Positions 12,341-28,382 of a stretch of DNA of 64,000 nucleotides are shown here, piece by piece. The first letter of the stretch is position 1. Each line of letters opens with the position of its first letter. Source of the stretch: a candidate division WWE3 bacterium (GTDB lineage Bacteria; Patescibacteriota; WWE3; UBA101185; UBA10185); contig JBPOHV010000001.1 in the NCBI GenBank assembly GCA_052035175.1, forward strand, positions 459,338 to 523,337. The letters run 5' to 3'. Under the pieces are notes generated by a model that did not search any database, was not told the origin of the DNA, and saw only the letters and a list, made by a program, of their open reading frames with translations. The position numbers were made by a program, and so were the translations under genes.

Positions 12341-12370
12341 AGGTTTAGCACTGCCAGTACAATAGTACAT

Positions 12371-13537
12371 ATGTCACTAAGCATTTATCCAGAACATTAC
12401 TCAAACTTTGAAGATCAGCAAGAGACAGGCAAAAAGACTTACATACTACCAATTCCTAGTGGGGGATCTATAGAAATAACAGCAGCTCAAGAAAAAGGCA
12501 CGATGAAACAAGGTCTATACAGCGTTGTCTACCCATTGGACGATAACAGAGTAGCCAAATTGAGCCATTTGGGGGTTACAGATATGGCTGGTGGATCTAT
12601 AGAAATAGATGGTCCAGAATTGGGAGACCGTTTGCAAGAAGTTTCAGAGTCTTCTGATAAGTCTGCAGCTGATTTAGCAAGGCGCAAAGCTTGGGTGAAG
12701 ATGCTAGAGGTAGCCAATCACAAGCAAGATATTCATGAATATCTAGAGCATTACGTGCATGGGTTTTTACTAGACCGTGACCTTATGACGATTGTTGACT
12801 CTCCAAGGAAAGCTTTGGATAAAATCTTACAATCATTTCCTGAAGGCGCGTATATTGATAAGCGTGTGCCTGATCACGAAATAAGCGTTTTGGAGATAGT
12901 TGAGAAGATTAGATTTAGTTTTTCCGATTTACCATTTGAAGGGTTGCAAGTCGCTTACGAGCGCCCATCGATTAAGCCTCAACTTAAGCAATTTTCTACA
13001 GGCGCATTACATTCTATTTTACAAGGTGGTCAGATGCTAGATATATCAGATTCAAATGGTGTGAGGTTGGTTTTTAAAGATGGCAGTGACCCTGTAGATA
13101 CTACGAATATCGAAACACTCTTAGGAGTTTTGACTGGCGAAATAACAGATATTATGCCTGTACCCAAAAATGTCGGGGTTACAAAAGATAAGCAAAATCC
13201 TAGACTAGTTTTGTACGATGAAGACCCTCTTCACGAAATAATAAATACGCCTATGCACGGTTTTGCACACGAAATAGCAAATTTGATACGTAACCAAGAT
13301 TATCAAGGAATAAAAGATATGTTTGATGCAGATGAGATTGTAGAAAGACCAACAAAGTCCAATGAAACTGGTAGAGTAATAAGTAAAAAACCTGACGATC
13401 GCTTGTTGCAGGCTAAATTGGCCATAACTAATCATTTATTATTACTGAAATACCTAGGGGCTGATTTTGATGAAGATTACACTTTTGATGCTACGACAAC
13501 CCATCTTTTGAGGTCTAGAAAGCCTACACACGTATAA
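12371..13537 (+). CDS. Hypothetical protein
   Basis: Intact 388-aa ORF. Its 3' end overlaps the convergent sortase gene by ~60 nt. No motif recognised. Confidence 0.45.
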   Translation: MSLSIYPEHYSNFEDQQETGKKTYILPIPSGGSIEITAAQEKGTMKQGLYSVVYPLDDNRVAKLSHLGVTDMAGGSIEIDGPELGDRLQEVSESSDKSAADLARRKAWVKMLEVANHKQDIHEYLEHYVHGFLLDRDLMTIVDSPRKALDKILQSFPEGAYIDKRVPDHEISVLEIVEKIRFSFSDLPFEGLQVAYERPSIKPQLKQFSTGALHSILQGGQMLDISDSNGVRLVFKDGSDPVDTTNIETLLGVLTGEITDIMPVPKNVGVTKDKQNPRLVLYDEDPLHEIINTPMHGFAHEIANLIRNQDYQGIKDMFDADEIVERPTKSNETGRVISKKPDDRLLQAKLAITNHLLLLKYLGADFDEDYTFDATTTHLLRSRKPTHV

Positions 13538-13995
13538 AGAGTAATTCTTGAGTCATCGGTCTCGTTTAGTATGTGTGTTTGATCTGGGGACACCATAAAA
13601 GTGCTAGAAATTTCAAACTTTTGAGTTGATCCATCAGAATAATCGATTTCAATATAATCGCCTTTATTTACTTTGTTTAAGCTTCCCAAAAGGTTTGGTC
13701 GATTGTGACCATAGAACACACTATTTCCTTGTGCACCTGGGATAGGCGTATTCGACAAGTATGAAACGCCATCATCTGTATATTCCCACGTATGTCCTTT
13801 GTATGTACTTGGGAAAATGTTTAGGTCGATATTTACTGCAGGTATTTTTATTCTTTTTGGTAAAACATTTTTTTGTAAAGGTGTGTTTGCTGTTTCTGCG
13901 ATTATAGGTCTATTTCTCACATAGTAAATGTTGCCAATAGTATATATTGAATACGAACAAACCAGTAAAAGGGCTATAGTAATAGCTTTTTTCAT
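13477..13995 (-). CDS. Sortase (class E/A-like transpeptidase), membrane anchored
   Basis: N-terminal TM, a His-containing VFYGHN segment, and the catalytic TLxTC box ITLYTCVGF with a downstream Arg. Confidence 0.75.
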   Translation of the reverse strand: MKKAITIALLLVCSYSIYTIGNIYYVRNRPIIAETANTPLQKNVLPKRIKIPAVNIDLNIFPSTYKGHTWEYTDDGVSYLSNTPIPGAQGNSVFYGHNRPNLLGSLNKVNKGDYIEIDYSDGSTQKFEISSTFMVSPDQTHILNETDDSRITLYTCVGFLDLKRWVVVASKV

Positions 13996-13996
13996 T

Positions 13997-14647
13997 TTAG
14001 TCTTTCTTTTTATTTTTAGAAGGTCTGTTTATATAAACACTAGTACCGAATGTGGTAGCAGCTGTTATACCAAATCCAATAATTGCTGGAGTGTCACCAG
14101 TATTTGCGAGTCCTAGTACTTGGCCACCAATGCCCAAGCGCGTTGTTGAGTAACCTGTAGCCAGTATGTCCCCGCCAAGTCCACCGCGACCACCATCATT
14201 ATCGTCATCTTCATCTTCATCGTCGTCGTTGTTGTTATCGTGGCAATCGTAAGACAAGTTCTTTGCTAGGTAAGGCTCTTCCTCAAGTCCCCAAAGTGCT
14301 CCATTTGGGATATATGTCCAACCTTGCTTTTGAAGCTCTGCAACCTCTTCTAGAGACATTTCAGACACTTTCCACCAATTGGTTTGCGTTCCGTTACCTT
14401 CATTAGGACAAAAGCATTGTACCAAGGTGTCTTGTGTAAGCGTATAGACTGCATCGCTTCCAGTTTGTTCTGAATAAACTCCAACAATGCCGTGTATACC
14501 AGAAGCATATGAGACTTTAAGTTGTCCTTGTGGATTTTCGCAATCTGCAAAAGTAGGTTCTGATATCTCAGAAGCGTTGGTTATTTGAGTTACAGCAAGA
14601 GAAGCTATTAAAATAAATGTTGCTACAAAGAGCCTGCCTTTTTTCAT
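13997..14647 (-). CDS. Sortase-substrate surface protein with a C-terminal LANTG sorting signal (ORF-track start 14701; MKKGRLF signal-peptide start at 14647 is likely)
   Basis: The C-terminus reads LANTG, then a hydrophobic segment TPAIIGFGITAATTFGTSVYI, then a basic tail NRPSKNKKKD. There is an internal D/E-rich run DNNNDDDEDEDDDND. It lies immediately upstream of, and is co-oriented with, the sortase. Confidence 0.65.
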   Translation of the reverse strand: MKKGRLFVATFILIASLAVTQITNASEISEPTFADCENPQGQLKVSYASGIHGIVGVYSEQTGSDAVYTLTQDTLVQCFCPNEGNGTQTNWWKVSEMSLEEVAELQKQGWTYIPNGALWGLEEEPYLAKNLSYDCHDNNNDDDEDEDDDNDGGRGGLGGDILATGYSTTRLGIGGQVLGLANTGDTPAIIGFGITAATTFGTSVYINRPSKNKKKD

Positions 14648-14737
14648 ATAAAACATTGGCAGGTTGGGGCAGATAGTACCACAATGACCTATAAAGATCA
14701 ACTATAAGGAAGGCAGCACATACTTGGTTTGATATAG

Positions 14738-15982
14738 TTAGTTATTTGTGAAGTAATCGATAAGTGAGATTAACTTTTCGTGAAGTTTGTATAATAGGTT
14801 CTTTTTTTGCTTTATTAATTCGATTGTTATGTCTGCTTGTTCTGTTGTTGGAATATTTATACTTTTGTCGAAATAACCATCTGCCTTTATATCTACTTTT
14901 GTTGTGTTCTCTATGTATGTTATTTCAAACTTACCTGTATCGTTTGCAATAAATAATTTATTTCCAACATACAATTTGGCAAACGGTACACTTTTGCCCA
15001 AACTATTTATTATCTGACCTGTTAATACTTTTGGCGTGTAAAATTTTGTTAGCGTCGTCACAGCTTTTCGCGGTGTGCTATCTGGTTCCCATAATGCCGT
15101 AGAACTATCTATGTTTGACCAATAATTCATTCCAATAACGTTGTTGTTGTTCATCAATAAACTTAGTGCTTTTTCTAACCAGTCTTGTTGTTCCTGCTGT
15201 GTAAATTCTCCGTGTATGTCTGGAATTGGCGCGCCAAATTCTCCCAATATAATTTTTCCTCCACTTGATATCGCCAATTGTGTTAAATCGGCCGAAAGCT
15301 TTTCTGGAGTTTCAACGTAATGATCGACTGCTACTATTCCATCTAGTGCTTTTGTTGTTGGTTTATCCATTGTAGCTAAAGCAACATCGCCATTCATAGA
15401 TAAATAATTAGACGCGACATTTTTGTTTATTTTTTTGAACGCTGCTTTTGTAATCTTATATTCTTGTATCAAAAAATCTCGATGACCTTGTATATCACCT
15501 GTATGCCTTGGATCTCCAGGCCCGCCATTCTCACATTCTGGACATGCCGAAAAGACATCTCCATCTTCAAAAAGATCTTGATGTGACAAAATAAATTGTT
15601 CAGTCATTTCCAAATGCGTTTCGCGCGTTATACGTGGGTATTTGAACCATCCTTCCCAGCCGCTCCAGTTACCACGAAACCAAACATGCAAGTTATACTT
15701 TCTGGCTGTAGCAACCCATCTTTTTAAGAATGGTAGAAACTCTTCGTCATAAGGTGTCGCAATACCAATATGCGTAGCGCCAGTTTTTGCTATTTCATTT
15801 ACTTGTTGATCTATTATTGCGTCAAAAGTTGGATTGTCTAGTTTTTCGCGCGCTTTATCTCGAGAATATTTCATAGTATCAATTGATTGAAAGTCCCAAA
15901 GTGATTTTGCGGATATATGATGTGGTATCAAACTAATACACACAAATATTAATACAGAAAATAATTTTTTAGTGTTTTTCAT
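14738..15982 (-). CDS. Secreted TIM-barrel glycoside hydrolase (GH5/GH113-like)
   Basis: Signal peptide, then CPECENGG (acid/base-like) and ILGEFGAP (nucleophile-like GEFG) motifs. Confidence 0.5.
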   Translation of the reverse strand: MKNTKKLFSVLIFVCISLIPHHISAKSLWDFQSIDTMKYSRDKAREKLDNPTFDAIIDQQVNEIAKTGATHIGIATPYDEEFLPFLKRWVATARKYNLHVWFRGNWSGWEGWFKYPRITRETHLEMTEQFILSHQDLFEDGDVFSACPECENGGPGDPRHTGDIQGHRDFLIQEYKITKAAFKKINKNVASNYLSMNGDVALATMDKPTTKALDGIVAVDHYVETPEKLSADLTQLAISSGGKIILGEFGAPIPDIHGEFTQQEQQDWLEKALSLLMNNNNVIGMNYWSNIDSSTALWEPDSTPRKAVTTLTKFYTPKVLTGQIINSLGKSVPFAKLYVGNKLFIANDTGKFEITYIENTTKVDIKADGYFDKSINIPTTEQADITIELIKQKKNLLYKLHEKLISLIDYFTNN

Positions 15983-17673
15983 TTTTGATTGTTAAATGTA
16001 GCATCTGTATTTAGTTGACCAATATATTCTGGTTTTATTTCATAAATATCTGCAAAAGGGAATTTACCAACCAAATTATATTTTTCTAGACCTGTTGTTT
16101 CTTTTACTGCTTTCCATGTCAGGTCGTTATCGTCATATGTCCTCATGATAATCCAACGTGCCCACCTATCTGGTAAGGCTGTAGCGCTTTGCCAGTATAA
16201 GCCAGTACCTTCATGTATAAACCGTTTCATAGGCAAACCAGATGAAAATATAATTGCGTCGTGCGAAGCTGCTGATATTAAAACAAAGCCTTTTTCGTTT
16301 AATGCATGGTCATACAACCAACCACTTACTTCAGAGACATTTTTTTGGCTAGATCCAACTCGTGCATCGTCTATCGTTACCGCGTCAAAACTTACAAATT
16401 GAAAAAACGTAACTAAAAAGAGCAAGCCAGCTATTGCTATTCGCATGTTTACTGCTTTATCAAATAAGTATCCAATGAAAATAGCAATAGCTGGCATAAG
16501 CATTATTCCGTATCTTACATTAAACCAAGTATCACCAGATAAGCCTTGTATAAACAAAACAGAGTGCCCCATGTATAAAGCTAATATATTAAAAAAGAAT
16601 GGAGCTATAAGTGCTGTTGAAGCATACTTAACATACTTGGTTATTCTTTTATCAAACCATGAGTATACCAATCCTAATACTCCCAAGATTACGTGCATAG
16701 CCCCAGAGTTGTAGACTAACGCGTATATATAGAACTTTACAGATAACCATAAGTTATGCTTGGTTTGCAATACTCCTGCGTTTTGTAGTTGGTCTTGTTG
16801 TGCTTTGGCTGAAAATGGTCCAAAAGCAAAATATAGCGGGTCTTTAAATATCAAAGCGTTCCACAATAACCATAGCATTATGCCAAAAGAAGCGAGCGTA
16901 CCGAACAAAACCAAAGTTCCTTCAGTTTGGAAATAATTGTTTTTTAATTGGTGAAAAACCCTTTGTAATCTTTGTTTAAGTGGTGCATGTTCTATGTCGG
17001 CATATTTGAAAAGAGTATGTATTGCTACCAAAGCACAACCCCACGCAAGCAAAAACCAACCATCATATCTAGCTAATGTAGAAAACATTATCCACATAGC
17101 AGACTTAATTAAATGCAAGATCTTGTCATTTTTATGCCAAAGCATCAACTCGTATGCTGCTATTGTCATAGTCGCAATTAATAACAATTCGGTCATAGCG
17201 GTTGATTGCAGATAAAGTACATTTAAATTCGTCACCCATACGATTACGCCTGCAAGCTTTCCGACCATGCTTATATTCAAAGCATCTAGATATTTGTAGA
17301 TAATCATGCCTGTGACAACAAAAGAAATCATCGAGATGATTGCTCCTGCCAACCCAGAGTGCCACATAAAATCATTCCAGATTGTAGGTACCATTAGTAA
17401 ATGTGGTAACGGTAGCCAGACAGACCCCAACTGCGCAAGTCCTGGTTTCAAACCTTCTACTACGCGCCTACCAATATCCAAGTGTGAGCGAGCATCATTA
17501 TAAGCGAGACCTAAATGGTTGTTGTAATAATATATAAATTGAGAAATGGATATCGTAGAGAGTGCGATAAACAAAAATATAGAAATGTGTTTTTGCAAAA
17601 AATATACTAGCCGGTCAAACCAGTTTGTGGGGATATTGAGGCTAATAATGTATTTCTCGTGTTCATTTCTCAT
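15979..17673 (-). CDS. Polytopic membrane protein, GT-C-fold glycosyltransferase-like (ArnT/PMT-like), with a C-terminal soluble domain
   Basis: At least 10 predicted TM helices followed by a ~150-aa hydrophilic tail. Paralogous architecture to the next gene. Confidence 0.45.
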   Translation of the reverse strand: MRNEHEKYIISLNIPTNWFDRLVYFLQKHISIFLFIALSTISISQFIYYYNNHLGLAYNDARSHLDIGRRVVEGLKPGLAQLGSVWLPLPHLLMVPTIWNDFMWHSGLAGAIISMISFVVTGMIIYKYLDALNISMVGKLAGVIVWVTNLNVLYLQSTAMTELLLIATMTIAAYELMLWHKNDKILHLIKSAMWIMFSTLARYDGWFLLAWGCALVAIHTLFKYADIEHAPLKQRLQRVFHQLKNNYFQTEGTLVLFGTLASFGIMLWLLWNALIFKDPLYFAFGPFSAKAQQDQLQNAGVLQTKHNLWLSVKFYIYALVYNSGAMHVILGVLGLVYSWFDKRITKYVKYASTALIAPFFFNILALYMGHSVLFIQGLSGDTWFNVRYGIMLMPAIAIFIGYLFDKAVNMRIAIAGLLFLVTFFQFVSFDAVTIDDARVGSSQKNVSEVSGWLYDHALNEKGFVLISAASHDAIIFSSGLPMKRFIHEGTGLYWQSATALPDRWARWIIMRTYDDNDLTWKAVKETTGLEKYNLVGKFPFADIYEIKPEYIGQLNTDATFNNQK

Positions 17674-19390
17674 GATCAGGCTTTACAAATTTTAATAGTA
17701 TCAAAACAAAAGTGGATGATATCAAACCGTATATTATCCAGAAATATTGCCAAGCGGTTATATGTTTGTGTGCAAAGCTTACAAACCCAGCAGATTTTGA
17801 AATGTTACTACTAAGTGTATCCAAATTTCTTTGCACTGTATACCTTTGTACTTTATTTGTAGTCTTTTCTAAAGCGAGAATTTCCACTTTTGGAGGCATA
17901 GCATTAGATGTTAACGCTCCTGCAGTATTAATATATGCAGATACATCAAACAAAATCACAAAAGCAATTACAAATAAAAAGCTTTTTTTATAGTTTGAAA
18001 GCGCTATCGCTAAATAAATAGCCAATATACCAAATACAGGAACTAAGTACCTTGGGCCAAACGCCCATCCACCCCAAACATCACCCCACATGGCATAAAG
18101 ACATACCAAGAGGCCAGAAACTCCTAGGAGTAGCGTGTGCATAACTTTATTAGATTTTTGTAAGAAGGCCATTCCATAAAAAGCCAAGATCATTACAGGT
18201 GCAAAAAATATAAATCCGCGATCTGGACTCAAAAATAAGATATACAGCCCATTTAACATTTCTCGCGTTTCAAAGTAATGCAAAGTATTTCTACTTTCGG
18301 TCTCTTGTTCAACGTCAAGATTTTCTTTTATAACAGCCTTGTTTTCGTCTTTGAATACTATTGGGTTACCTTGTTTGTCAAATTCCTGTACTTGTACAAC
18401 CGTACCAGCCAACTGCAAAGGATTTCCGTAAGATGTTTTATTAAACCAAAAGAAGAACGCAATAGCAGGAATTGCAGTGACTACACACAGAGTATATAGA
18501 GGTCTAAAAACCATTTTTAATTTATTGGTCTCTTTAGATATTTTTAGTACTTGTGTAACTGCATATATAGCAAAAGGTAGTAAAATTATCGCATTTGGGT
18601 AGTCTACTGAAATTGCAAGAAAGTAGGTAAAAGAAATAACCAACAATGTTTTATAGTTATCCCACTTCACAATCGCGTACAGACTTATCAAAATTAATAG
18701 TAATGTAACGTGGTGTTGATAAAGGCTTACTCCATATGCAAAAGCATTGGTGCCGAATAAAAAAGCCAGTGCAGCCAATACAGCTGCATATTTATTTGCT
18801 CCTAATTTTTTTGAAATCTCTATAATCAGTAAAACATTTATAAAAGCAATAAAAGTAATTACAGCATAAGTTCCCAATTGTGCTGCACCCAAAGCTTTAC
18901 CTATAACATATCCTGGAATTATTAAAAAAGAAACGCCTGGTGCAAATAACGAAACAAAGTTCCCATTAAAAAATCCCAAGTCGGGTGCAGCCAAACGCGC
19001 GACATCTTTTGAAAAATACAGTGTGTGATCTTCGACGACCGAATACATAAGCGCATAGCGTCCTCTGTCTGGGGATAGCTCGAGCGGGCCATCTTCTTTC
19101 CAGTTACTAGTGTTGAGTTCGGTTATAGAAGGATTTCCCACCATGCCTTTTATGCTTAGTGCAAGTATTGCAATTACTAAGATAAAGGCTATATATAGTG
19201 TTTTTTCTTTTATGCTTATTACTTTTTGAACCAATTGCTTAAGTAAAGGTGCAGCTATTTTGGCATTTATATCGAGGTTAGATATTTTGTTGTATATATA
19301 CTTTACGTTAAGCATTTTAGATATTCTGATATTTATTTTTAATAACAAAATTTTCGAAATCGACTTCATCGTATCTAATAATGTCTCCAA
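17663..19390 (-). CDS. GT-C-fold membrane glycosyltransferase (ArnT/PMT family-like). An alternative start at 19315 would avoid overlap with the SDR gene.
   Basis: Many TM helices, a large extracytoplasmic loop, and a C-terminal WGDVWGGWAFGPRYLVPV segment typical of PMT_2/ArnT-like enzymes. Confidence 0.5.
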   Translation of the reverse strand: METLLDTMKSISKILLLKINIRISKMLNVKYIYNKISNLDINAKIAAPLLKQLVQKVISIKEKTLYIAFILVIAILALSIKGMVGNPSITELNTSNWKEDGPLELSPDRGRYALMYSVVEDHTLYFSKDVARLAAPDLGFFNGNFVSLFAPGVSFLIIPGYVIGKALGAAQLGTYAVITFIAFINVLLIIEISKKLGANKYAAVLAALAFLFGTNAFAYGVSLYQHHVTLLLILISLYAIVKWDNYKTLLVISFTYFLAISVDYPNAIILLPFAIYAVTQVLKISKETNKLKMVFRPLYTLCVVTAIPAIAFFFWFNKTSYGNPLQLAGTVVQVQEFDKQGNPIVFKDENKAVIKENLDVEQETESRNTLHYFETREMLNGLYILFLSPDRGFIFFAPVMILAFYGMAFLQKSNKVMHTLLLGVSGLLVCLYAMWGDVWGGWAFGPRYLVPVFGILAIYLAIALSNYKKSFLFVIAFVILFDVSAYINTAGALTSNAMPPKVEILALEKTTNKVQRYTVQRNLDTLSSNISKSAGFVSFAHKHITAWQYFWIIYGLISSTFVLILLKFVKPDHEK

Positions 19391-20063
19391 TTATTTCTGC
19401 AACCCGATATGGGGACAAGTGATTGCCTGCTTTACTAGATACAAAATTTGTCATAGCAGATGGTAAGACGGCAATTACTCTTATGCCAAAGGGTTTTAAC
19501 TCATTTTTAAGAACATTAGTCATGCCTTCGACTGCATATTTTGTACTAGCATACAAAGATTTGTAAGGTGAGATCATACTATTGCGGGAGATTTTAGAAC
19601 CAATGTTTATTATAGTTCCTTGTTTTTGCTCTTTCATGTATTCTGCTGCATACTTTGATGTCAAAAAGTTTGATTTGATATTAACCGCAAGATATTCGTC
19701 TATGATATCTGAGGTAATCTCGCTTAGTTGTTTGTCGTATGTTACCGCGGCATTATTTATCAAAACATCTATTTTGCCGTATTCTTTGTGTATTTGATCA
19801 AAAATTGCGGCCACTTCGCTTTCATTTGTTATATCGCAAACCAGTGTATGCAACTTGTCTTGATTAGTAGCCGCAGATCTTGATAATGCGATAACATTAG
19901 CACCAGAATTATGCATATACTCTACAAGACACTTACCCAACCCCGTACTTGTACCAGTAATCACGATGATTTTTTCTGACAATTTGTTACTCGTCGGAAC
20001 CTCTAGCAGTTTTTGTTTGACAAGCAGATGAATTGTACGTTTTATATCCTTTAAAATTGTCAT
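19317..20063 (-). CDS. Short-chain dehydrogenase/reductase (SDR) family oxidoreductase
   Basis: ITGTSTGLG is the TGxxxGxG motif. Also NNAAV and the catalytic Ser...YASTK. Confidence 0.8.
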   Translation of the reverse strand: MTILKDIKRTIHLLVKQKLLEVPTSNKLSEKIIVITGTSTGLGKCLVEYMHNSGANVIALSRSAATNQDKLHTLVCDITNESEVAAIFDQIHKEYGKIDVLINNAAVTYDKQLSEITSDIIDEYLAVNIKSNFLTSKYAAEYMKEQKQGTIINIGSKISRNSMISPYKSLYASTKYAVEGMTNVLKNELKPFGIRVIAVLPSAMTNFVSSKAGNHLSPYRVAEIIGDIIRYDEVDFENFVIKNKYQNI

Positions 20064-20064
20064 A

Positions 20065-21237
20065 TTAAATTTTACTCATATAAAAATCGTGCATTCTTTT
20101 TGCTACTTCTTCCCATGTGTTTCTTAAGCCAAATTCTCGACTATTATTTTCAATTTGCTTAATTTCATCAGAGTTAGAATGCTCTAATACATAGTTAATC
20201 TTTTTTGCTAATGCATCACTATCTTTTGTTTCTATAAGATAGCCAGTTTCATTATCTTTGATTAAATAGGGGAGTGCGGTATTGTTTGCTACGATGCAGA
20301 CTTTTCCTTGACTTAAACCTTCGTGAACCACATTACAAAAGCTTTCCCACAAAGCCATATGCACCATCATTTGAGAGTGTTTGATCAAATAGTATTTATC
20401 GATGCCTTTTGAGATACCATAAAATATGACTCTATCTTCTACGCCCAAGCTTTTTGCCAAGTTGATTAACATTGTTTTATAACTTTCTTCTCCTACCGGA
20501 CCTACCAATAAGTATTTTACGTCTTTTGGTAATTTTGTAAGAGCCTTTATAGTTGTTTCATTATTTTTAATTTTGTAGATACGGCCAATCTGAATAATGT
20601 ATCTTCCAAATTGGTTTACGTGAGTCTTTACCAATGCACTTGCTTTGGCATCTACATCTTCAAAAGCTTCGTTTTCGAGCCCATTGTCGATAACTACTAC
20701 TTTTTCTTTGTTTACTCCTTTTGCAACAATTTGTTCTTTTTCCCATTCTGATACAGCCCTCACGCCATCAACAACAAGGTTTATCATCAATGTACCTAAA
20801 GTATAATGATATGTGGATTTCACTAGTCGTGTTGGAAGATCATATATAGACCATTCAGGATTAAACCCACCGTGTGGTGTTAGAAAGAGCTTAAATTTCT
20901 TTTTACCAAATATTTTTAGTATCAATGCAAAAGCCATTATGGCGAAATGAGGTAATATGTTGAAATTGTGCAAACATACAAAGTCTGCCTTTTGCCAATC
21001 TATTTTAGGCCAATAACCCATAGGCCCATAATTATATCTATTAACATTAATACCACTTATGATTTCTTCAGACTTCAGCACGTTTTTTTCGGTCAACGTA
21101 TCTGTAGTCGTATGCATGATTATGTCCCAGCCGCCTTTTACAAGCACTTTGTAAGTTTCATGTGTATTTACCTCAATTCCAGCTGTTACAGGAATAAAGT
21201 ATTTTTCTATAACATGTACAATCTTTTTTTCTGACAT
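20065..21237 (-). CDS. GT4-family (GT-B) glycosyltransferase
   Basis: C-terminal EX7E-type motif HMALWESFCNVVHEGLSQGKVCIVANNTALPYLIKDNETGYLIE. Confidence 0.7.
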   Translation of the reverse strand: MSEKKIVHVIEKYFIPVTAGIEVNTHETYKVLVKGGWDIIMHTTTDTLTEKNVLKSEEIISGINVNRYNYGPMGYWPKIDWQKADFVCLHNFNILPHFAIMAFALILKIFGKKKFKLFLTPHGGFNPEWSIYDLPTRLVKSTYHYTLGTLMINLVVDGVRAVSEWEKEQIVAKGVNKEKVVVIDNGLENEAFEDVDAKASALVKTHVNQFGRYIIQIGRIYKIKNNETTIKALTKLPKDVKYLLVGPVGEESYKTMLINLAKSLGVEDRVIFYGISKGIDKYYLIKHSQMMVHMALWESFCNVVHEGLSQGKVCIVANNTALPYLIKDNETGYLIETKDSDALAKKINYVLEHSNSDEIKQIENNSREFGLRNTWEEVAKRMHDFYMSKI

Positions 21238-21977
21238 TATGCTTTCCTCGCTTTTATAGAAACTATAACTGGGAAGTATTGATCATTGTAATCAAGTTCT
21301 TTTTTATCCATTTCTTCTAACGCCATTCCAACCCAGAAACATTGGCCTGCCAATGCATTTCCATATGTTTTAACTTCGAGTTCATCATGTACGAAGTATT
21401 TGTTAAAAATATATTCACCAGAAGCACGTGTCCATCTCCAATGATGGTGGTCGATATTCCAGACTGGTCCCAAGCATGGCATTGTAACAAGTATATATCC
21501 ACCTTTCTTCAAGATTCTATGACATTCTTTAATAGCTGCAGGGTAGTCATCGATCATTACAAAAGTTTGAGTGATTATCAAACAATCATATGTTTCATCA
21601 GCAATGTCTTTTAAGTCTCTTAAGTCTCCATAAAGATTGGCAACTTTATTATTTGTGTTTATATCCAAAGCATCTGCCCTAGAAACTTTTTCTTTGCCGT
21701 ATTTTTGTATATAAGCTGTGTCTGTAATTTCCAAGCAAGCTCCCTTTACTACATCAGCATTTTTTTCCATAAATTGTTCTATATAATATCGATCTATTGG
21801 TGTGCCTCTATCGTATCCGTAGACAGTGCTTAGCGGTTCTACGTTTTTAGTGTCTTCTACTCTTTTTGGTAATGGTGCGATGTAATAATTACTCAATGGT
21901 CTTAGTGTTTTCACTACAACATTTTGCACTTTTCGTACTATTTTATAAACTATTGAATTAGGATCTTTTTTTATCAT
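21237..21977 (-). CDS. Class I SAM-dependent methyltransferase (tentative)
   Basis: ACLEITDT...DCLIITQ...ILKKGGYILVT has Rossmann MTase-like spacing. Confidence 0.5.
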   Translation of the reverse strand: MIKKDPNSIVYKIVRKVQNVVVKTLRPLSNYYIAPLPKRVEDTKNVEPLSTVYGYDRGTPIDRYYIEQFMEKNADVVKGACLEITDTAYIQKYGKEKVSRADALDINTNNKVANLYGDLRDLKDIADETYDCLIITQTFVMIDDYPAAIKECHRILKKGGYILVTMPCLGPVWNIDHHHWRWTRASGEYIFNKYFVHDELEVKTYGNALAGQCFWVGMALEEMDKKELDYNDQYFPVIVSIKARKA

Positions 21978-22795
21978 AATATTGATCTTTCTATTATTTG
22001 TTTTTTTACAAATTTCTTAATAAACTTTCTAAACTTTATTACAGATGGAGATATTGTCCATAAGACTTCATTTATCCCGTGCGAACTATCTATTCCCACT
22101 CTTGGAATAGTTAGTAAGTCAGTGTTGGATGTTAGCGCCGCGTCATCCATACTAAATGCCGCTGTATACCCAGCTGATCTAATATATTTCAACACGTCGC
22201 TTGTATAATTTCCCTTTGGATAAGCAAAATAGTCTATGTTTATACCTAGGTCCGCCTGAAGCTTTTCTTTTGCTGTGATTACCTCTTCTTTTATCTGTGC
22301 TTTTGAAATACCAGAAAAGTTGATATGAGTCAAACTATGAGCCCCTACAGACCAGCCATTTCTATATAGCATTTTAATGTCATCGATAGATAAAAAGTCT
22401 TTTTTTGTATTCAAAGCTAGTTCGCCAAAATTATAATTTTCAGTATCAGCTATTACAAATATGCATGGTTTTATTTTCAATTGTTCCAAAAATTGCTCCG
22501 TTCGCAATATGTTTTTATATCCGTCGTCAAACGTTAGAACTACAGATTTTGTCATCGGCTTATTTGTTTGGAGATTTTCTAGCAGTTCGTTTACAGTTAT
22601 GAAGTTATATCCGTGCATTAAAAGTTTATTTATGTGTAATATGAATAGTTCTGGTTTTGTACTAAATCTCCATGCATCATTTGAAATACTGTGGTAACAC
22701 AAAACAACTGCGCTATTCTTTGTCTGCAGTATGTTGTCGATACTAAATAACGTAAAATAAATTATTTTTCTAATTAGTATAAAGAAGTTTTTCAT
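21974..22795 (-). CDS. Polysaccharide deacetylase (NodB homology domain, CE4) with an N-terminal membrane anchor (ORF-track start 22831)
   Basis: VVLTFDDGYKN (the TFDDG motif) and WSVGAHSLTHINFS (the His motif). Confidence 0.75.
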   Translation of the reverse strand: MKNFFILIRKIIYFTLFSIDNILQTKNSAVVLCYHSISNDAWRFSTKPELFILHINKLLMHGYNFITVNELLENLQTNKPMTKSVVLTFDDGYKNILRTEQFLEQLKIKPCIFVIADTENYNFGELALNTKKDFLSIDDIKMLYRNGWSVGAHSLTHINFSGISKAQIKEEVITAKEKLQADLGINIDYFAYPKGNYTSDVLKYIRSAGYTAAFSMDDAALTSNTDLLTIPRVGIDSSHGINEVLWTISPSVIKFRKFIKKFVKKQIIERSIL

Positions 22796-23721
22796 ATGTT
22801 TACTGTCTTTGACGAATTTGCCAATGTCCATGTGTCTTTATTGATTTTTTCAGGTTTGATTGCACTATACAGATAACAATATAAGACTAAGAAAGGATAT
22901 ATAGTGCTGTAAATAGGACTTTTTAGAAATACCTTTATTCCAGATATTGCTAGTTTTACCCATGGCCATTTAGTAAGTCTATGTATCAATTGCTTAGGTA
23001 AATCGTCATAAAATATCTTGTTAGAATTATAAAAGCGTATTTCTTGTTTTAAATGATCGTATAACGTTGCAGGTAATGCATACCAGCATTCTGTATCTTT
23101 TACAAAACTAAACTTAAACCCATTAGCGTGACAAAAAATATACGAATACATATCTTCTGCAAAGCTCTTTTTGAATTCAAATTTAAGTACAAATGCTTTG
23201 GATAAGGCTCTAATAGTGCCGTGGCAATTGTACCAATTATCACCGTCATTTAGATCTTCAAACGTTTCTCTTTTTATTTCGTTCCCAATAGCGAGAACTT
23301 TTTCTATAAATGTGCGTGGCTTGCTTTCTAAAAGGCGACAAGATACTAGATCGGCATGATCTTCACTTATTGGCTTGATCATTTTTTGTAAGCATTTGTT
23401 ATCTGTAATTCTAATGTCACCATTTAACAACAATACTATGTCAGCATTTTTATAGTGCATCAATTCATTTGATCTTGCGGCTAAGCCTTTGTTTTCTTTA
23501 TTGTCTACAACGATGATTTTGTCATTACTGACACTTTGCGCTTGCGCTACCGTATTATCGGTAGAACCATCAGAAAGAACAACTATGTTTATTAATTCAA
23601 ATGTTGATATGTCTTGTGCAACTAGGTCTGTTAAAAGATTTTTTATATTTGATCCTTCGTTGTAAGCTGGTATTCCGATAAGTACTTTTGGTTTATCCAT
23701 ATTATTTGTTTGAGTTACCAA
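22792..23721 (-). CDS. GT2-family (GT-A) glycosyltransferase
   Basis: IGIPAYNEGSNI and VVLSDGSTDNT motifs. Confidence 0.75.
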   Translation of the reverse strand: MVTQTNNMDKPKVLIGIPAYNEGSNIKNLLTDLVAQDISTFELINIVVLSDGSTDNTVAQAQSVSNDKIIVVDNKENKGLAARSNELMHYKNADIVLLLNGDIRITDNKCLQKMIKPISEDHADLVSCRLLESKPRTFIEKVLAIGNEIKRETFEDLNDGDNWYNCHGTIRALSKAFVLKFEFKKSFAEDMYSYIFCHANGFKFSFVKDTECWYALPATLYDHLKQEIRFYNSNKIFYDDLPKQLIHRLTKWPWVKLAISGIKVFLKSPIYSTIYPFLVLYCYLYSAIKPEKINKDTWTLANSSKTVNI

Positions 23722-26221
23722 CTTTATCTGTCAAATTTAGTTTCCATACAGAATCTTCTATATTAGACGTTTGAATACTGAGTGTTTTTCGTATTTCGTG
23801 TAAAAATTTATTTGCTGTCATTTCCCAGCTAAAATTATTTGCCCACAATTTACCAGTCTTACCAAATGTAGTTCTTAATTCATGATCAGATATCAATTTA
23901 TCAAGGGCTTCTGCTGTTTGGTCTACATTTGCCCATTCGACCAGCAATCCAGTTTTTTCATGATTTACCGATTCTTTGAGTCCGGGAACATTTGTTGCAA
24001 CTACTGGAGTTTCACACATATTTGCTTCTATAACAGTAATTCCCCAACCTTCTACCATTGATAATTGTACTGCTATCCACGATTTGGTAAACAGTTGTGC
24101 CTTTGTTTTTTCAGTAACATTACCTTTGAAAACCACATGTTTTTGAAGTCCTAATTGGTTGACTTGTGCTTTTAGTGTTTTTTCGTGTTCTCCGCTTCCG
24201 GCTATTATCAGCTTGATATTAGTATATTTCTCTTTTAATTTATGAATAGCGTGAATTGCTGTATCTACGCCTTTATACTCGCGCAGACGTCCAAGATATA
24301 AAACGGTTGGCGTTGACGTCTTTTTCACTTTTGCTGGTTTGATTTCGACGCCAGGGTACATAATTTCTATGTTTTGATTTTTCCCAAGACCTATTTTGAG
24401 CATTTCTTCTCTTGTAGAATCTGATACAGCTAACATTTTGATTTTTCTGTATAAGAACGGCATCAATATACCTTCTAAAAACATAGAAAGTTGCTTGGTA
24501 GGGAATGGTAATTCTTTTTTAAACATTTCTTGATGTACTTGATGAACAAGACATATCTTTGGTTTTGTTACAAATAGAGGAGTAAAGAAAGGTACACCTT
24601 TGGGAATATCGATGACTACATCAAAGTTTTTTCTAAACTTGATTACGTAATATATAAATCCCCAGATTGCTACAGTATAAATCCCGCCGCGTCTAAAAAC
24701 TTTAACGCCATCTACTTCTTCATAATGCTCGCTTTGTTGATCATTTCCGCAAAAGAATGTTACATCATGCCCTTGTTTCACAAAATTTTTAGCAACTTGA
24801 TGTATATATATTTCTGCACCGCCACCCCATACGTGTTTTGTATCGTACCAGTTATATATTAATATACGGAGCTTATCAGGGTTTAGTTTACGTGGTTTGG
24901 GAAGAGGCGAGAACAACCCATAAAAAGCTACTAGGTTATTTAACGCTATTTCTATATGAGTATTAAACAAATGCAAAAGTAGTGCCGTACTCAAATTTAC
25001 AAATCCTAGTACAGCCATAAGTATGACGAAGCTTTCTAAATCGGTATTAAAATGTCCAAGCACATATATTTGTACTAAAGCTAGTAAAAAGCTAGTAATT
25101 GGGAACAAAGATTTGTCTTTAATTTGATAGTAACCAAAGATTGTAGAGGCCAACGAAAACAAAAGTACTGCAAAGCCATAAATAGGTAAAAGCTCAGTTA
25201 CATTTGAGATCTTATCTCCAAATAAAAACGCTGCAGTGTGATTGCCAAAGAGTCCTACTGCTATATATACACAAAAGCTACATAACGCAGAAATGAAGAA
25301 CAAAGTATAAAACTTGTTAGAACTATCTACCTTTGAGCCTTCATCTTTACTAACTAACGGTAAGATAAATTGACTAAAAAGGCCTCCTATCGAAAATATC
25401 ATTTTGCCGACCAAAGCTACTAATGCGTATTCACCTGCTTCAATTGGAGATAAATAGTGTTTTGCTAAAAGCACATCAAAGCTTAAAAAAGCTATAATCG
25501 AGAAATTATACACAAATGAAGACGTATAGAATTTTGTTGGGAATTTGATGTTGTCCGATTTAGCTTGTGCTGTTTGTTTTCTAACCATGAATTTTACAGA
25601 GAGATATGCTATCGACAAAGCTACAAACAGTGATGTAGGTATAGCCAAATAAGCAAATTCGCCATAGCCAGTTACGACTAAGATATATGCAACGAGAAGC
25701 TTACAAATAGCTTCTACAGTTATCAAAATTCCAACAGCAGTAAACTTCAAATTACCGTTTATAAAGCCAGTATCTATAGAAGCTAAGCTTGCTATGAAAA
25801 TACAAGGTGTAAACAAAAGTATAGGTAGTAGTGAGTCGGTTTTAAAATAGTTCATCAAGAAAGGGGAGGCAACGATCCATACAACACTGAACAATCCAGA
25901 AATCAAAAAGATATTTTTGCGAGTTTCATACCAAAACGTTGTAAATGGTTTTTTATATTTTCCAAAATAAAAAGCAGACTCGTGTATAACTGTACGGTTC
26001 AAAGCATTTAGCGGTATCGATAATAAAAATAAGAAGCTACCGATCAAACTAATCAATCCAAAATCTTCGATTGACACAGCTCGCGTTAAAAAAGCGTTAT
26101 AGGCGTAGTTGAGAAAATTTGCAACTACACCAGAGGCTACAAGAACCATTCCAGATGTTGCATAAGCTTTTACCGAGGAAAAAGCTTTGTTGATTAGTGC
26201 ATAAATTTTGTTTAGCACCAT
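23702..26221 (-). CDS. Fusion protein: N-terminal Wzx/MOP-type polysaccharide flippase-like polytopic domain plus C-terminal GT4 glycosyltransferase
   Basis: The first ~430 aa contain more than 12 TM helices of the polysaccharide-biosynthesis-protein type. The last ~380 aa are GT-B, with LAVSDSTREEM...EGWGITVIEANMCETPVVATNVPGLKESVNHEKTGLLV. Confidence 0.65.
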   Translation of the reverse strand: MVLNKIYALINKAFSSVKAYATSGMVLVASGVVANFLNYAYNAFLTRAVSIEDFGLISLIGSFLFLLSIPLNALNRTVIHESAFYFGKYKKPFTTFWYETRKNIFLISGLFSVVWIVASPFLMNYFKTDSLLPILLFTPCIFIASLASIDTGFINGNLKFTAVGILITVEAICKLLVAYILVVTGYGEFAYLAIPTSLFVALSIAYLSVKFMVRKQTAQAKSDNIKFPTKFYTSSFVYNFSIIAFLSFDVLLAKHYLSPIEAGEYALVALVGKMIFSIGGLFSQFILPLVSKDEGSKVDSSNKFYTLFFISALCSFCVYIAVGLFGNHTAAFLFGDKISNVTELLPIYGFAVLLFSLASTIFGYYQIKDKSLFPITSFLLALVQIYVLGHFNTDLESFVILMAVLGFVNLSTALLLHLFNTHIEIALNNLVAFYGLFSPLPKPRKLNPDKLRILIYNWYDTKHVWGGGAEIYIHQVAKNFVKQGHDVTFFCGNDQQSEHYEEVDGVKVFRRGGIYTVAIWGFIYYVIKFRKNFDVVIDIPKGVPFFTPLFVTKPKICLVHQVHQEMFKKELPFPTKQLSMFLEGILMPFLYRKIKMLAVSDSTREEMLKIGLGKNQNIEIMYPGVEIKPAKVKKTSTPTVLYLGRLREYKGVDTAIHAIHKLKEKYTNIKLIIAGSGEHEKTLKAQVNQLGLQKHVVFKGNVTEKTKAQLFTKSWIAVQLSMVEGWGITVIEANMCETPVVATNVPGLKESVNHEKTGLLVEWANVDQTAEALDKLISDHELRTTFGKTGKLWANNFSWEMTANKFLHEIRKTLSIQTSNIEDSVWKLNLTDKVGNSNK

Positions 26222-26222
26222 A

Positions 26223-28382
26223 TCAGCCGCCGATCTTGGCAGGAACTTGGTTAGCAGCCTTTTTAAGATGGAGACCGTGTTGTGTTTTTTCCCAGTGATG
26301 TGGTTTAAATAACAATTGATAAAATGCCATTACTGCAGCAATACTCATCAAAAACCAATAAAAGGGTACTAAAAAGACGTATTTCATGAGTTCCCAGTGG
26401 CCTCTTTTTGCAAGGCCTATCATATAGTTGTACAAGTATAAAAAGTTGCCGAATACCAGTGAAATAGCCCCCATATAAAACACAGTTGTTGGATAAAAAG
26501 ATTCAATAGTTGGTCCTACATATTTATATAAAACAAAATATGAAATAGTCATCGCCCACCAGATAGGATTAATCAAAATGAATATAATTCTCAAACCAAT
26601 TATCAACTGGAATAGTAATGCATGTGCGCCGTTTGTTCTAAAGAAGTTTATTGGGTCGCGCATGTGTACCTGATATGTTTGCATGTAGCCTTTGAGCCAG
26701 CGTGATCTTTGGCGGATCCAGTTCTTTGTATTGCTGTTTGCTTCTTCTAGTGTTACAGAATCAATAATTGCAGTTTTGTATCCTTCTTTAAATAGCCTTA
26801 CTCCCAAATCACAATCTTCTGTTACATTAAATGGATCCCAACCTTCAAGCTCTCGTAATTTCTGAGTTTTGAAATGATTGCTTGTGCCACCTAAAGGTAT
26901 ATAAGTGTCGATGCTTTGTAAACCTGGTAAAACTACATCAAACCACAAAGAATATTCCGCAGTAAATAAGCGTGTTAATAAATTGTGGTGTGGGTTGTAA
27001 TAATTGAGTTTTGCCTGGACGCAGACTGTTTTTTCACCAAGCTGTGTGAACGCAAGGTATGCTTTTTTTAACTGCATAGGCTCAGTTTTATCTTCAGCGT
27101 CATATATTACTATATATTCACCTTTTGCTTGTAACAACCCGTAGTTGCACGCTTTTGGTTTTGTTTTTGGTGCTGAATGAGGAGTAACTACTATTCTAAA
27201 GTAATCGGGTAAACTCATACTTTGTGCCACATGTATAGTTTTAGCATCGTCTTCTTCAAGTAACAAAATGACATCAAGTTTATTTTTTGGCCAATCAATA
27301 TTGTTGATAGCTTCGATGAAATGAGGCAAAACTTCGGATTCTTTATATAAAGGACACAAGATCGTATAAACCGGTAATGTTTTGTCGTTTATACTGGCTA
27401 ATTGTGCGTCTGAAAAAGCCAGTTCTGGCGGAAAATAGAGGCTTTTTGATATAACGAATACGCTGAAAATGACATCTGCAAAATAAATAGCAGTTAAAAA
27501 AGCAATAAGGCCAATAAGTGTGTACATGTAATTTGTATAGAGTCCATAACCTAATGCAAGTATTCCAGATACTATTATAATTTTTTGCCATCTTTGAAAT
27601 GTGTATATAGCCGATTTTGAATGATGTCTATTTGTGTGAGTTACATATTTCTTTTTCCTATAAATAACGCCAGATTCAATGTTATAGACTCTTCTATTCT
27701 TAAACCTAGTTTTAAAAGCGCACTTAGCTATATCAAAACCTGTTTTTAGGATACCAACCTTTGATGCGCCTTCTTCTCGAGCTTCAAACTCTATGTCAAC
27801 TTTGTCGATTTTGTATCCCAATTCTTGTGCCGCGAATAAAAGTGGGATATCAAATGTCCATGGTGTTACGAGAGACTTGTCTATTTCTATTCCTATACTT
27901 TTTCTAAAAATCTTGAGACCCGATTGAATGTCTGTATTTATACCAGCCAGCAATCTACCAAAAACAAATACCCCCAATCTAGACAATATTCTGCGTAGAA
28001 GAGGTGCTTTAAAGACTTTTCTGTTTGCTACAACTACTCCTATTGTTTCGTCTTGCATCTTGGCATACATCTCTGGTAGGTATTTGGGTGAGTACTGCAA
28101 ATCACCGTCTATAAAAGCTATCAATTTGGCATCAGATACAGATATACATTCAAGTAGCGTATACCCTTTGCCAGGTTTACCTTGCTTTTCGTGTAATAAT
28201 ATTTGATTCTGATCTTTAATTTTGTGTATTTCTTTGAGTGTGTTGTCGGTAGATTTATCGACGCCAAAAAGTATCTTATAGTCGATATTTAGTGGGTCAA
28301 GTGCACTTTTTATACCAGCCACCATTTTGGCAATATTCTTTTCTTCGTTTTTGACTGGTACTATTATGTCTAAGTCTCTCAT
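26223..28382 (-). CDS. Tandem GT2 fusion: polyprenyl-phosphate glycosyltransferase-like (DPM1/GtrB-like) domain, TM segment, then a processive synthase-type GT2 with a QxxRW motif and C-terminal TMs
   Basis: The N-terminal domain has IIVPVKNEEKNI...FIDGDLQY. The second domain has LCPLYKESE...YDAEDKTEP...NWIRQRSRWLKGY (the Q/RxxRW box). It is flanked by multiple TM helices. Confidence 0.65.
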   Translation of the reverse strand: MRDLDIIVPVKNEEKNIAKMVAGIKSALDPLNIDYKILFGVDKSTDNTLKEIHKIKDQNQILLHEKQGKPGKGYTLLECISVSDAKLIAFIDGDLQYSPKYLPEMYAKMQDETIGVVVANRKVFKAPLLRRILSRLGVFVFGRLLAGINTDIQSGLKIFRKSIGIEIDKSLVTPWTFDIPLLFAAQELGYKIDKVDIEFEAREEGASKVGILKTGFDIAKCAFKTRFKNRRVYNIESGVIYRKKKYVTHTNRHHSKSAIYTFQRWQKIIIVSGILALGYGLYTNYMYTLIGLIAFLTAIYFADVIFSVFVISKSLYFPPELAFSDAQLASINDKTLPVYTILCPLYKESEVLPHFIEAINNIDWPKNKLDVILLLEEDDAKTIHVAQSMSLPDYFRIVVTPHSAPKTKPKACNYGLLQAKGEYIVIYDAEDKTEPMQLKKAYLAFTQLGEKTVCVQAKLNYYNPHHNLLTRLFTAEYSLWFDVVLPGLQSIDTYIPLGGTSNHFKTQKLRELEGWDPFNVTEDCDLGVRLFKEGYKTAIIDSVTLEEANSNTKNWIRQRSRWLKGYMQTYQVHMRDPINFFRTNGAHALLFQLIIGLRIIFILINPIWWAMTISYFVLYKYVGPTIESFYPTTVFYMGAISLVFGNFLYLYNYMIGLAKRGHWELMKYVFLVPFYWFLMSIAAVMAFYQLLFKPHHWEKTQHGLHLKKAANQVPAKIGG

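Follow-up and report, generated by a model that had tools for sequence, protein, structure and literature searches.

In the multi-component transmembrane glycosylation systems of Gram-positive bacteria, a GT-A glycosyltransferase (GT) makes a C55-P-sugar, a flippase exports it, and a GT-C enzyme uses it to decorate a wall polymer (PMC8035078). CsbB/GtcA/YfhO, GtlA/GtlB, GacI-J-K-L, and GtsABC are examples, with a flippase of the GtrA type or, in the case of GacK, of the Wzx type (PMC8035078). Here we analyzed a 64,000-nucleotide stretch of contig JBPOHV010000001.1 from a candidate division WWE3 bacterium (the window) and describe in it a block of 12 genes at positions 13477-28382 that contains candidates for all three module types, GT-A, flippase, and GT-C. 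We hypothesize that this locus assembles and decorates an envelope glycopolymer, partly outside the membrane, with polyprenyl-phosphate-linked sugars, and we give this reading a probability of roughly 55%. The locus differs from the known multi-component systems in several ways. Its GT-C proteins belong neither to YfhO nor to another Pfam family; in relatives, a megaprotein of ~1550 aa joins the GT-A domain with a processive synthase, the flippase, and a GT4 domain; the block has two GT-C paralogs, a glycoside hydrolase (GH)-like partner, a CE4 enzyme, and a sortase with its substrate; and the host is a member of the Patescibacteria.

A second related system is Pgf of Streptococcus mutans, in which PgfS, PgfM1, PgfE, and PgfM2 stand beside Cnm/CnaB/CbpA (PMC5856776, 10.1101/2024.05.05.592596). 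In both cases a GT2, two GT-C proteins with an external catalytic site, and an enzyme of the short-chain dehydrogenase/reductase (SDR) superfamily adjoin one or more sortase-anchored proteins. However, the N-terminal GT2 domain of the first gene in our block scores 56.8 bits against the PgfS model, which has a cutoff of 500, and is not a PgfS ortholog; PgfM1 and PgfM2 belong to the YfhO family, whereas the GT-C proteins of the block do not; the SDR of the block is a classical, FabG-like enzyme found in only 4 of 57 relatives; the sortase substrate is small and Cys-rich, and its linker in the window is not Ser/Thr-rich; and the block adds a processive synthase, a CE4 enzyme, a Wzx-type domain, and a GH-like protein.

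The block is fully occupied by consecutive minus-strand open reading frames (ORFs), and the ORF listing contains no competing long ORF. We number the genes in the order of transcription, with gene 1 at the 28382 end:

26223..28382, minus strand: gene 1, GT2-GT2 fusion, 719 aa
23702..26221, minus strand: gene 2, fusion of a transmembrane (TM) domain and a GT4 domain, 839 aa
22792..23721, minus strand: gene 3, GT2 with a hydrophobic C-terminal tail, 309 aa
21974..22831, minus strand: gene 4, predicted CE4 polysaccharide/lipid-sugar de-N-acetylase (Pfam Polysacc_deac_1)
21237..21977, minus strand: gene 5, predicted class I S-adenosylmethionine (SAM) methyltransferase (Pfam Methyltransf_11/23)
20065..21237, minus strand: gene 6, soluble GT4 (Pfam Glycos_transf_1)
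19317..20063, minus strand: gene 7, classical SDR (Pfam adh_short)
17663..19315 (annotated start; longest ORF to 19390), minus strand: gene 8, GT-C2, 550 aa, predicted GT-C fold
15979..17673, minus strand: gene 9, GT-C1, 564 aa, predicted GT-C fold
14738..15982, minus strand: gene 10, secreted or membrane-anchored GH-like protein (assigned through homologs)
13997..14647 (signal-peptide Met start; longest ORF to 14701), minus strand: gene 11, LANTG sortase substrate (assigned by its sorting signal)
13477..13995, minus strand: gene 12, membrane-anchored sortase, the last gene (Pfam Sortase)
28430..28457, minus strand: promoter-like site TTGAAA-16-TATAAT in the 87-nt divergent intergenic region upstream of gene 1

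The initial annotation of this stretch had the consecutive order and the coordinates right; its own list has 12 items, and its count of fourteen genes corresponds to domains, with the fusions split. It also described the block as headed by the sortase, which is in fact the 3'-most gene on the minus strand, while the GT2-GT2 fusion comes first. Adjacent genes overlap or lie 1 nt apart (TGA-T-ATG is the junction between genes 1 and 2), the sole exception being ~90 nt before the LANTG gene. The promoter-like site upstream of gene 1 is the best sigma-70-like match (11/12) within positions 12000-29500; because the total of such sites in this range does not exceed shuffle expectation, it is suggestive only. 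Terminator-like sites inside the block are not above shuffle expectation either, and none is convincing. A scan of the window with Rfam returned three tRNAs only, hence no riboswitch or leader upstream of the operon. From the spacing, the conservation, and the gene fusions, we infer that the block is one operon. As candidate regulators, we considered an OmpR-type response regulator and a histidine kinase (28470-30160, plus strand), which are divergent from the operon, and rejected them: they are not syntenic, since just 2-3 of 45 loci have such genes, and there they lie at the opposite flank. A similar regulator/kinase pair lies a few kb downstream of the locus in two related loci (L017 and L024) and on the contig of a fused GT-C1 homolog (P0294).

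Nearly all homologs of both GT-C proteins belong to Microgenomates-type Patescibacteria (Levy-, Davies-, Gottesman-, Ames-, Woese-, Curtiss-, and Shapirobacteria), the group to which we also assign the genome of the window, and relatives of GT-C1 occur in 321 species genomes. For synteny, we sampled 80 fetched loci from different species, counted genes on the same strand at the expected distance, and used as denominators the loci with enough flank. GT-C2 is beside GT-C1 in 74/74 loci, and the GH-like gene follows GT-C1 in 64/65; the 309-aa GT2 (51/57) and the Wzx-GT4 fusion (50/54) are nearly as constant. The LAxTG protein (44/60) and the sortase (41/59) are present less often, followed by the CE4 gene (24/57), the GT4 of gene 6 (21/57), the methyltransferase (9/57), and the SDR (4/57). 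The locus is a fixed core with a variable tailoring middle, which in the window is also the stretch of lowest GC content (window average, ~36%). Mean identity across the 80 loci is ~61% for GT-C1 compared with 39 to 51% for its neighbours.

Relatives also fuse these genes with each other. Genes 1 and 2 form one ORF of ~1550 aa (GT2-GT2-Wzx-GT4) in 25 of 31 related loci. Two loci (L001 and L004) encode GT2, CE4, and GT-C2 in a single ORF of 1106 aa with CE4 in the middle; ahead of CE4 there is only weak hydrophobicity, and the first TM helix, a strong one, comes directly behind it. Other loci carry the partial fusions GT2-CE4, CE4-GT-C2, and GT2-GT-C2. GT-C1 and the GH-like protein, the latter C-terminal, are fused in at least 7 metagenomic cluster representatives of 890 to 954 aa; in one of them (P0294), residues 9 to 523 are 37% identical to GT-C1 (E-value, 2e-99). 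Conserved gene order in relatives, which the initial annotation had named as a point to check, is thus strong across the 80 loci, and together with the fusions of gene pairs it places the arrangement far beyond chance.

Pfam directly confirms the sortase, adh_short in the SDR, the GT4 domain twice, the methyltransferase, Polysacc_deac_1, the GT2 of gene 3, and the two GT2 domains of gene 1. No direct Pfam match was obtained for the two GT-C proteins, the catalytic part of the GH-like protein, the flippase domain, or the LANTG protein, and proteins of this kind were assigned by fold comparison or, transitively, via homologs.

Gene 1 begins with a GT2 domain of the polyprenyl-phosphate sugar synthase type (residues 1 to ~230), followed by two TM helices, a GT2 domain of the processive synthase type (339-564), and C-terminal TM helices; the two GT2 stretches are those seen by Pfam. 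In a sequence search of the PDB, the top 7 matches of the N-terminal domain were all GtrB, DPMS, or ArnC (2.7e-9, 7.5e-9, and 3e-7, respectively). Its NCBIfam matches are PgfS (2e-15) and ArnC (4e-11), as well as AglJ and Dol-P-hexose transferase. By homology, this domain is predicted to be a GT-A/GT2 enzyme that makes polyprenyl-phosphate sugars. The C-terminal part matches PgaC/IcaA (1.8e-24) and CelA (4.5e-17) in NCBIfam and BcsA in the PDB (3.6e-5 over residues 46-339 of that part). Its translation contains DAED, TED, and QRSRW motifs with TM helices on either flank, which is the combination expected of a processive GT2 beta-glycan synthase.

In gene 2, an N-terminal membrane domain (residues 1 to ~440) with ~11-12 TM helices is fused to a cytoplasmic GT4 (467-805; Pfam Glycos_transf_1, 3.6e-47). 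The membrane domain has no direct Pfam or NCBIfam match, and its homolog P0241 (46% identity, E-value 2e-91) passes the Pfam cutoffs for Polysacc_synt and Polysacc_synt_3; transitively, the domain is a putative divergent flippase of the Wzx/MOP type. Homologs of the Wzx-like domain also occur with other fusion partners, namely, an APH-type kinase domain (P0244, 729 aa) and a GT2 (P0245, 727 aa).

The GT2 of gene 3 (Pfam Glycos_transf_2, 3.2e-25) matches AglJ (1.7e-10), PgfS (3e-6), and ArnC (3.6e-4) in NCBIfam and is a candidate second polyprenyl-phosphate sugar synthase. Gene 4 encodes a CE4 protein (Pfam Polysacc_deac_1, 1.4e-22) with NCBIfam matches to IcaB (3.3e-18) and PgaB (5.5e-16) and also to NodB and HfsH. 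Genes 5, 6, and 7 are, by their patchy presence in relatives, variable accessory genes with presumed tailoring functions. The GT4 of gene 6 (Glycos_transf_1, 3.2e-28) has Agl16 as its best NCBIfam match (6e-51, below the Agl16 cutoff), and the SDR of gene 7 (adh_short, 2.5e-43) is closest in NCBIfam to FabG-like classical SDRs and not to GalE-type epimerases. In the variable middle of relatives, a hexapeptide acetyltransferase and an APH-like kinase are found in the stead of the SDR.

The fusion of GT2, CE4, and GT-C2 in relatives reproduces the order ArnC-ArnD-ArnT. In the Arn pathway, ArnC, ArnD, ArnE/F, and ArnT modify the lipid A of Gram-negative bacteria. Unlike that pathway, the block contains neither the sugar-nucleotide genes ArnA/ArnB nor an ArnE/F flippase, and its CE4 is nearer to the IcaB/PgaB profiles than to ArnD. 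As the organism has no lipid A, the acceptor must differ from that of Arn.

The systems that make poly-N-acetylglucosamine (PNAG; icaADBC and pgaABCD) share with the block a CE4 enzyme, a processive GT2 that carries QxxRW and TM helices, and probably a glycosidase-type domain. However, the matches fall far below the equivalog cutoffs (86.5 against 422.3 bits for PgaC/IcaA and 66.1 against 248 bits for IcaB/PgaB), the block encodes no IcaC/IcaD or PgaA/PgaD, and its CE4 is optional and is fused to the GT-C branch. Might the locus nevertheless make a plain secreted exopolysaccharide (EPS), PNAG-, chitosan-, or cellulose-like? The synthase, CE4, and GH-like proteins would then be sufficient, the sortase pair would be no more than a frequent neighbour, and the GT-C enzymes would act on another envelope target, for example, a lipid or lipoglycan. 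A trio of synthase, CE4, and glycosidase typifies synthase-dependent EPS systems, NCBIfam ranks PgaC/IcaA and IcaB/PgaB first for the respective proteins, and the sortase pair can be separated from the core. We nonetheless consider this explanation quite unlikely: CE4 is present in just 24 of the 57 loci and, where fused, has GT2 and GT-C2, not the synthase, as fusion partners; the GH-like protein is linked and fused to GT-C1 rather than to the synthase; and in most relatives the polyprenyl-phosphate synthase domain is fused to both the processive synthase and the flippase. Because donor synthase, processive synthase, and flippase are joined in this way, we argue that the lipid-linked and the synthase branches act on one product, as the glycopolymer hypothesis proposes.

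Sequence searches of the PDB with GT-C1, GT-C2, and their profiles returned nothing, and neither protein matches a Pfam family at an E-value of ≤0.01, hence none of YfhO, PMT, PMT_2, and STT3. Fold comparison was therefore needed. In the predicted structures, GT-C2 has ~12 TM helices and a GT-C fold, and GT-C1 has a GT-C fold with a C-terminal extracytoplasmic alpha/beta domain. Structural neighbours of the GT-C proteins include Pmt4/Pmt2, AftB, AftA, PimE, and EmbA, and those at the top for GT-C1 include Pmt4, Pmt2, and AglB. The first external loop of GT-C1 carries the invariant motif YNDARSHL, and the conserved first-loop Asp of GT-C proteins is D60 in GT-C1. Both models are thus those of multi-spanning GT-C fold transferases whose first external loop holds a conserved acidic residue. 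That these genes might encode unrelated transporters had been raised as an objection, and the folds speak against it. Together with the proximity of the gene 1 N-terminal domain to GtrB, DPMS, and ArnC and the assignment of the Wzx-type domain through P0241, they agree with the logic of lipid-linked extracytoplasmic glycosylation that the initial annotation had suggested.

The same logic connects the locus with actinobacterial Ppm1/Pmt and with the GT-C enzymes of lipomannan and arabinan synthesis, where a GT2 supplies the polyprenyl-phosphate sugar that a GT-C enzyme uses on the outside, and where cytoplasmic GT4 steps precede flipping, as with PimA/PimB. In contrast to these systems, the GT-C proteins of the window lie outside PMT and PMT_2, with only distant fused homologs reaching PMT_2, there is no sign of a coupling to Sec, and the locus belongs to another phylum and has another parts list.

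The GT-C1 fold also bears on en-bloc oligosaccharide transfer in the style of archaeal Agl or Campylobacter Pgl. Here, a lipid-linked oligosaccharide built by the GT4 and GT2 enzymes, with methylation and deacetylation taking place in the cytoplasm, would be flipped by the Wzx-type domain and transferred to surface proteins by GT-C1 acting as an oligosaccharyltransferase, while GT-C2 would add the last sugar from a polyprenyl-phosphate donor, as AglS does. The block parallels the Agl parts list of Haloferax: it has AglJ/AglD-like GT2s, with matches to AglJ, a GT4 whose best match is Agl16 (6e-51), and, besides the methyltransferase, a candidate flippase of the Wzx type and a pair of GT-C enzymes. 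GT-C1 also has a C-terminal external domain. We judge this model highly improbable, however. A WWDYG-type motif is absent from GT-C1 and GT-C2 (neither sequence contains WWD), as is a Pfam STT3 match; the GT-C half of the fused GT-C1-GH-like homologs passes or nearly passes Pfam PMT_2, pointing to ArnT/PMT-like families; the block has no initiating phosphoglycosyltransferase; and the GT4, methyltransferase, and SDR occur in just 4 to 21 of 57 relatives, so that there is no conserved oligosaccharide pathway. On the same grounds, we rejected an assignment of GT-C1 as an oligosaccharyltransferase of the STT3/AglB/PglB type, the resemblance being structural only.

The neighbouring GH-like protein has an N-terminal signal or anchor and a C-terminal CarboxypepD_reg beta-sandwich, and the ortholog alignment shows the invariant residues E151-N152 and G-E248-F-G (GEFG). 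The catalytic part has no direct Pfam match, and single-sequence and profile searches of the PDB and a tblastn search against plasmids gave noise or nothing. Among 35 orthologs searched against Pfam, 23 contain CarboxypepD_reg, and matches to clan GH-A are single and weak only; the accessory domains of the orthologs are CarboxypepD_reg or PA14. One homolog (P0276, 41% identity) passes the Pfam Glyco_hydro_cc cutoff of 21 bits with a score of 26.2, the match spanning positions 139-225 of the 237 in the profile, and another (P0281) reaches 17.8 bits. Through these distant homologs, the catalytic core is probably of the clan GH-A type. Fusion of GT-C1 to such a domain favours a polysaccharide as the acceptor.

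The product of gene 11 consists of a signal peptide, a ~100-aa domain with 4 invariant Cys residues and several invariant or near-invariant Trp residues, a short low-complexity linker, VLGLANTG, a hydrophobic helix of 22 mostly hydrophobic residues, and a Lys-rich tail (NRPSKNKKKD), and thus carries a complete sorting signal. It is the only ORF with an LPXTG-like sorting signal in the 64-kb window, and neither the protein nor its profile has a Pfam or PDB match. Homologs in related loci likewise end in LAxTG, a TM helix, and a basic tail; LAxTG makes up 47 of 51 sorting-signal matches in these loci, and L180, A181, T183, and G184 are invariant in an alignment of the window protein with 33 homologs. 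Many orthologs repeat G-(Q/D/E)-(V/I)-L-G ~10-18 residues ahead of VLGLAxTG, and the linkers of several contain either GRSDGRSDG repeats or a CPEC motif. The sortase (Pfam Sortase, 2.8e-23) scores 43.5 bits against the general sortase model TIGR01076 (cutoff, 39.35) and has the His-Cys-Arg triad and a TLxTC motif, with H97, C156 (TLYTC), and R164 invariant in 34 orthologs. It reaches no NCBIfam class model (its scores are 46.2 bits for class D, with a cutoff of 165; 24.9 for class E, cutoff 160; and ~42 for classes C and F, cutoffs 160 to 166); LAxTG resembles class E substrates, yet the window sortase is below the class E cutoff. In one related locus (L068, 13004-14179), the LAxTG protein and the sortase share a single ORF of 392 to 442 aa, depending on the start choice, which may be a real fusion or an assembly frameshift.

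A sorting transpeptidase with its cognate substrate inside a polysaccharide locus is also known from exosortase/PEP-CTERM systems and from XrtG in EPS loci. NCBIfam models of XrtG-, XrtP-, XrtY-, and XrtA-associated GTs match the GT2 and GT4 domains of the block, all below their cutoffs. The enzyme of our block, in contrast, is a true sortase with His/Cys/Arg and an LAxTG substrate.

Does the locus glycosylate this substrate? In a Pgf-like protein O-glycosylation, GT-C1 and GT-C2 would take the flipped polyprenyl-phosphate sugar made by the GT2 domains and attach it to the LAxTG protein, either in its low-complexity linker or in its domain, as well as to further secreted proteins, ahead of anchoring by the sortase. 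Pgf, with a GT2, two GT-C enzymes, and an epimerase beside wall-anchored adhesins, is the nearest precedent so far described. The GT2, the two GT-C proteins, and the SDR match S. mutans Pgf, which also stands beside wall-anchored substrates (10.1101/2024.05.05.592596); PgfS is the best NCBIfam match of the gene 1 N-terminal domain; the LAxTG gene lies downstream of the GT-C genes in 44 of 60 loci; the structures ranked highest for GT-C1 include Pmt4, Pmt2, and AglB; and the linker exceeds 30% Ser/Thr in ~14 of 34 LAxTG orthologs. Yet the window linker is acidic (27% Asp/Glu against 9% Ser/Thr, or 4 Ser/Thr residues), and some ortholog linkers are only 11 to 14 residues long. The sortase-substrate pair is absent beside the core in ~15 loci, while GT-C2, GT-C1, and the GH-like protein stay together in ~100%. 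Moreover, GT-C1 has a probably glycan-active GH-like domain and no protein-binding module as its fusion partner, the processive synthase domain and CE4 would be left without a role, and by Pfam the GT-C proteins are not of the YfhO family. On balance, we regard Pgf-like glycosylation as unlikely. The initial annotation had left the choice between a dedicated glycosylated surface protein and a wall glycopolymer. Since GT-C1 is fused in relatives to a probably glycan-active GH-like domain, the pair is separable, and the linker is acidic, a glycopolymer acceptor is better supported; a dedicated glycosylation of the LAxTG protein is possible and less supported.

How could the parts work together on a glycopolymer? 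The folds, homologies, synteny, and fusions described above are the basis of our model, and from them we infer every substrate as well as the membrane side of CE4. On the cytoplasmic face, the gene 1 N-terminal domain and probably the 309-aa GT2, to judge from their homologs, would load polyprenyl phosphate with sugars. CE4 may then de-N-acetylate the lipid-linked GT2 product on the cytoplasmic side, as ArnD does; fusion and topology suggest this. The Wzx-type domain of gene 2 would flip the lipid-linked sugars, and GT-C1 and GT-C2 would move them onto an extracytoplasmic acceptor, presumably a polysaccharide. Because donor synthase, processive synthase, and flippase are usually one polypeptide, the simplest acceptor would be the beta-glycan that gene 1, through its BcsA/PgaC-like processive domain, would synthesize and export. 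The GH-like protein may trim or transglycosylate the polymer, and the GT4, methyltransferase, and SDR would provide strain-variable tailoring. Finally, the dedicated sortase would anchor its single LAxTG substrate to the wall, where the substrate could work with the polymer as a binder, tether, or acceptor. The fusions suggest two branches. One would lead from the 309-aa GT2 via CE4 to GT-C2, in the order ArnC-ArnD-ArnT, and deliver an amino sugar; given canonical GT-C topology, CE4 would be cytoplasmic. The other would lead from the gene 1 N-terminal domain to GT-C1 working with the GH-like domain.

Several observations weigh against this model. The LAxTG-sortase pair is not beside the core in ~25 to 30% of relatives (the ~15 loci with enough flank mentioned above), and its functional tie to the glycan genes is therefore weaker than that of the core. 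The nearest NCBIfam profiles of CE4 are IcaB and PgaB, which are extracytoplasmic polymer deacetylases, and not ArnD, so that the ArnD-like step draws on fusion topology alone. In the PDB comparison, the 309-aa GT2 matches generic GT2 enzymes only. The GH-like, Wzx-like, and GT-C proteins of the window were assigned via predicted folds or homologs and have no direct family match, and co-transcription is deduced from spacing, conservation, and fusions only. The block also contains no initiating phosphoglycosyltransferase, no LCP ligase, and no GtrA-type flippase.

Patescibacteria, or the candidate phyla radiation (CPR), account for a large share of bacterial diversity. To our knowledge, almost nothing is known on how they build their envelopes or contact their hosts. 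The locus is a candidate for the principal surface-glycan machinery of Microgenomates, a large group of ultra-small bacteria that have not been cultured, is conserved in hundreds of species, and it offers two unclassified GT-C families, an unclassified GH-like family, and a new sortase-substrate family. Its natural fusion proteins show which enzymes work together, and the ArnC-ArnD-ArnT-like fusion of GT2, CE4, and GT-C predicts a decoration with amino sugars, which would be cationic. We also considered a bolder version, which we hold to be improbable, in which the locus would serve Microgenomates as their chief pathway to a wall glycopolymer: the GT2-GT2-Wzx-GT4 megasynthase would make the polymer, the GT-C1/GH-like pair would finish it as a transglycosylase, and the sortase-anchored, Cys/Trp-rich LAxTG protein, as acceptor or tether, would tie it covalently to peptidoglycan. 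If true, a sortase-dependent attachment of glycopolymers via two unclassified GT-C families would replace the LCP ligases and teichoic acids of other monoderms.

In Microgenomates, sortase is near-ubiquitous, and many enriched families are hypothetical membrane proteins (PMC6744442). Our full-text literature searches found no description of the locus or of its GT-C, GH-like, and LAxTG families in Patescibacteria. The claim of the initial annotation that such a system had not been described in this form holds to that extent, for the locus and several of its families; its logic is known (PMC8035078), as is a Pgf-like cluster (10.1101/2024.05.05.592596), and the chemistry is of a known kind and not a new principle.

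The surroundings of the operon contain further features. A 388-aa ORF (12371-13537, plus strand) runs toward the operon and shares 61 nt with the 3' end of the sortase gene. Neither Pfam nor a tblastn search of the 80 related loci gave a match for it, and a promoter-like site lies nearby (12334-12363). At 32514-36158 (plus strand), a gene encodes 1214 aa that include a beta-propeller of the PQQ type and three Ig-like domains (Big_7); the product of the next gene, 535 aa long, matches DUF1554 weakly, and both are probably further surface proteins. A gene for a 1949-aa protein with fibronectin-III, laminin-G, and purple-acid-phosphatase-N-like domains (50628-56477, minus strand) has the highest GC content of the window (0.42) and a GC skew of -0.31; upstream of it (47730-50631, minus strand) are an FtsX/MacB-type permease and a 264-aa ORF. 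A large serine recombinase ORF (Resolvase and Recombinase; 45904-47616, plus strand) overlaps a tRNA-Glu gene (47576-47650, minus strand) by ~40 nt, and an integrated element could have its edge here. Some 3 kb beyond the downstream end of the operon (9421-10158, minus strand) is a gene for a PIG-L family (GlcNAc-PI de-N-acetylase-like) protein, possibly another sugar de-N-acetylase.

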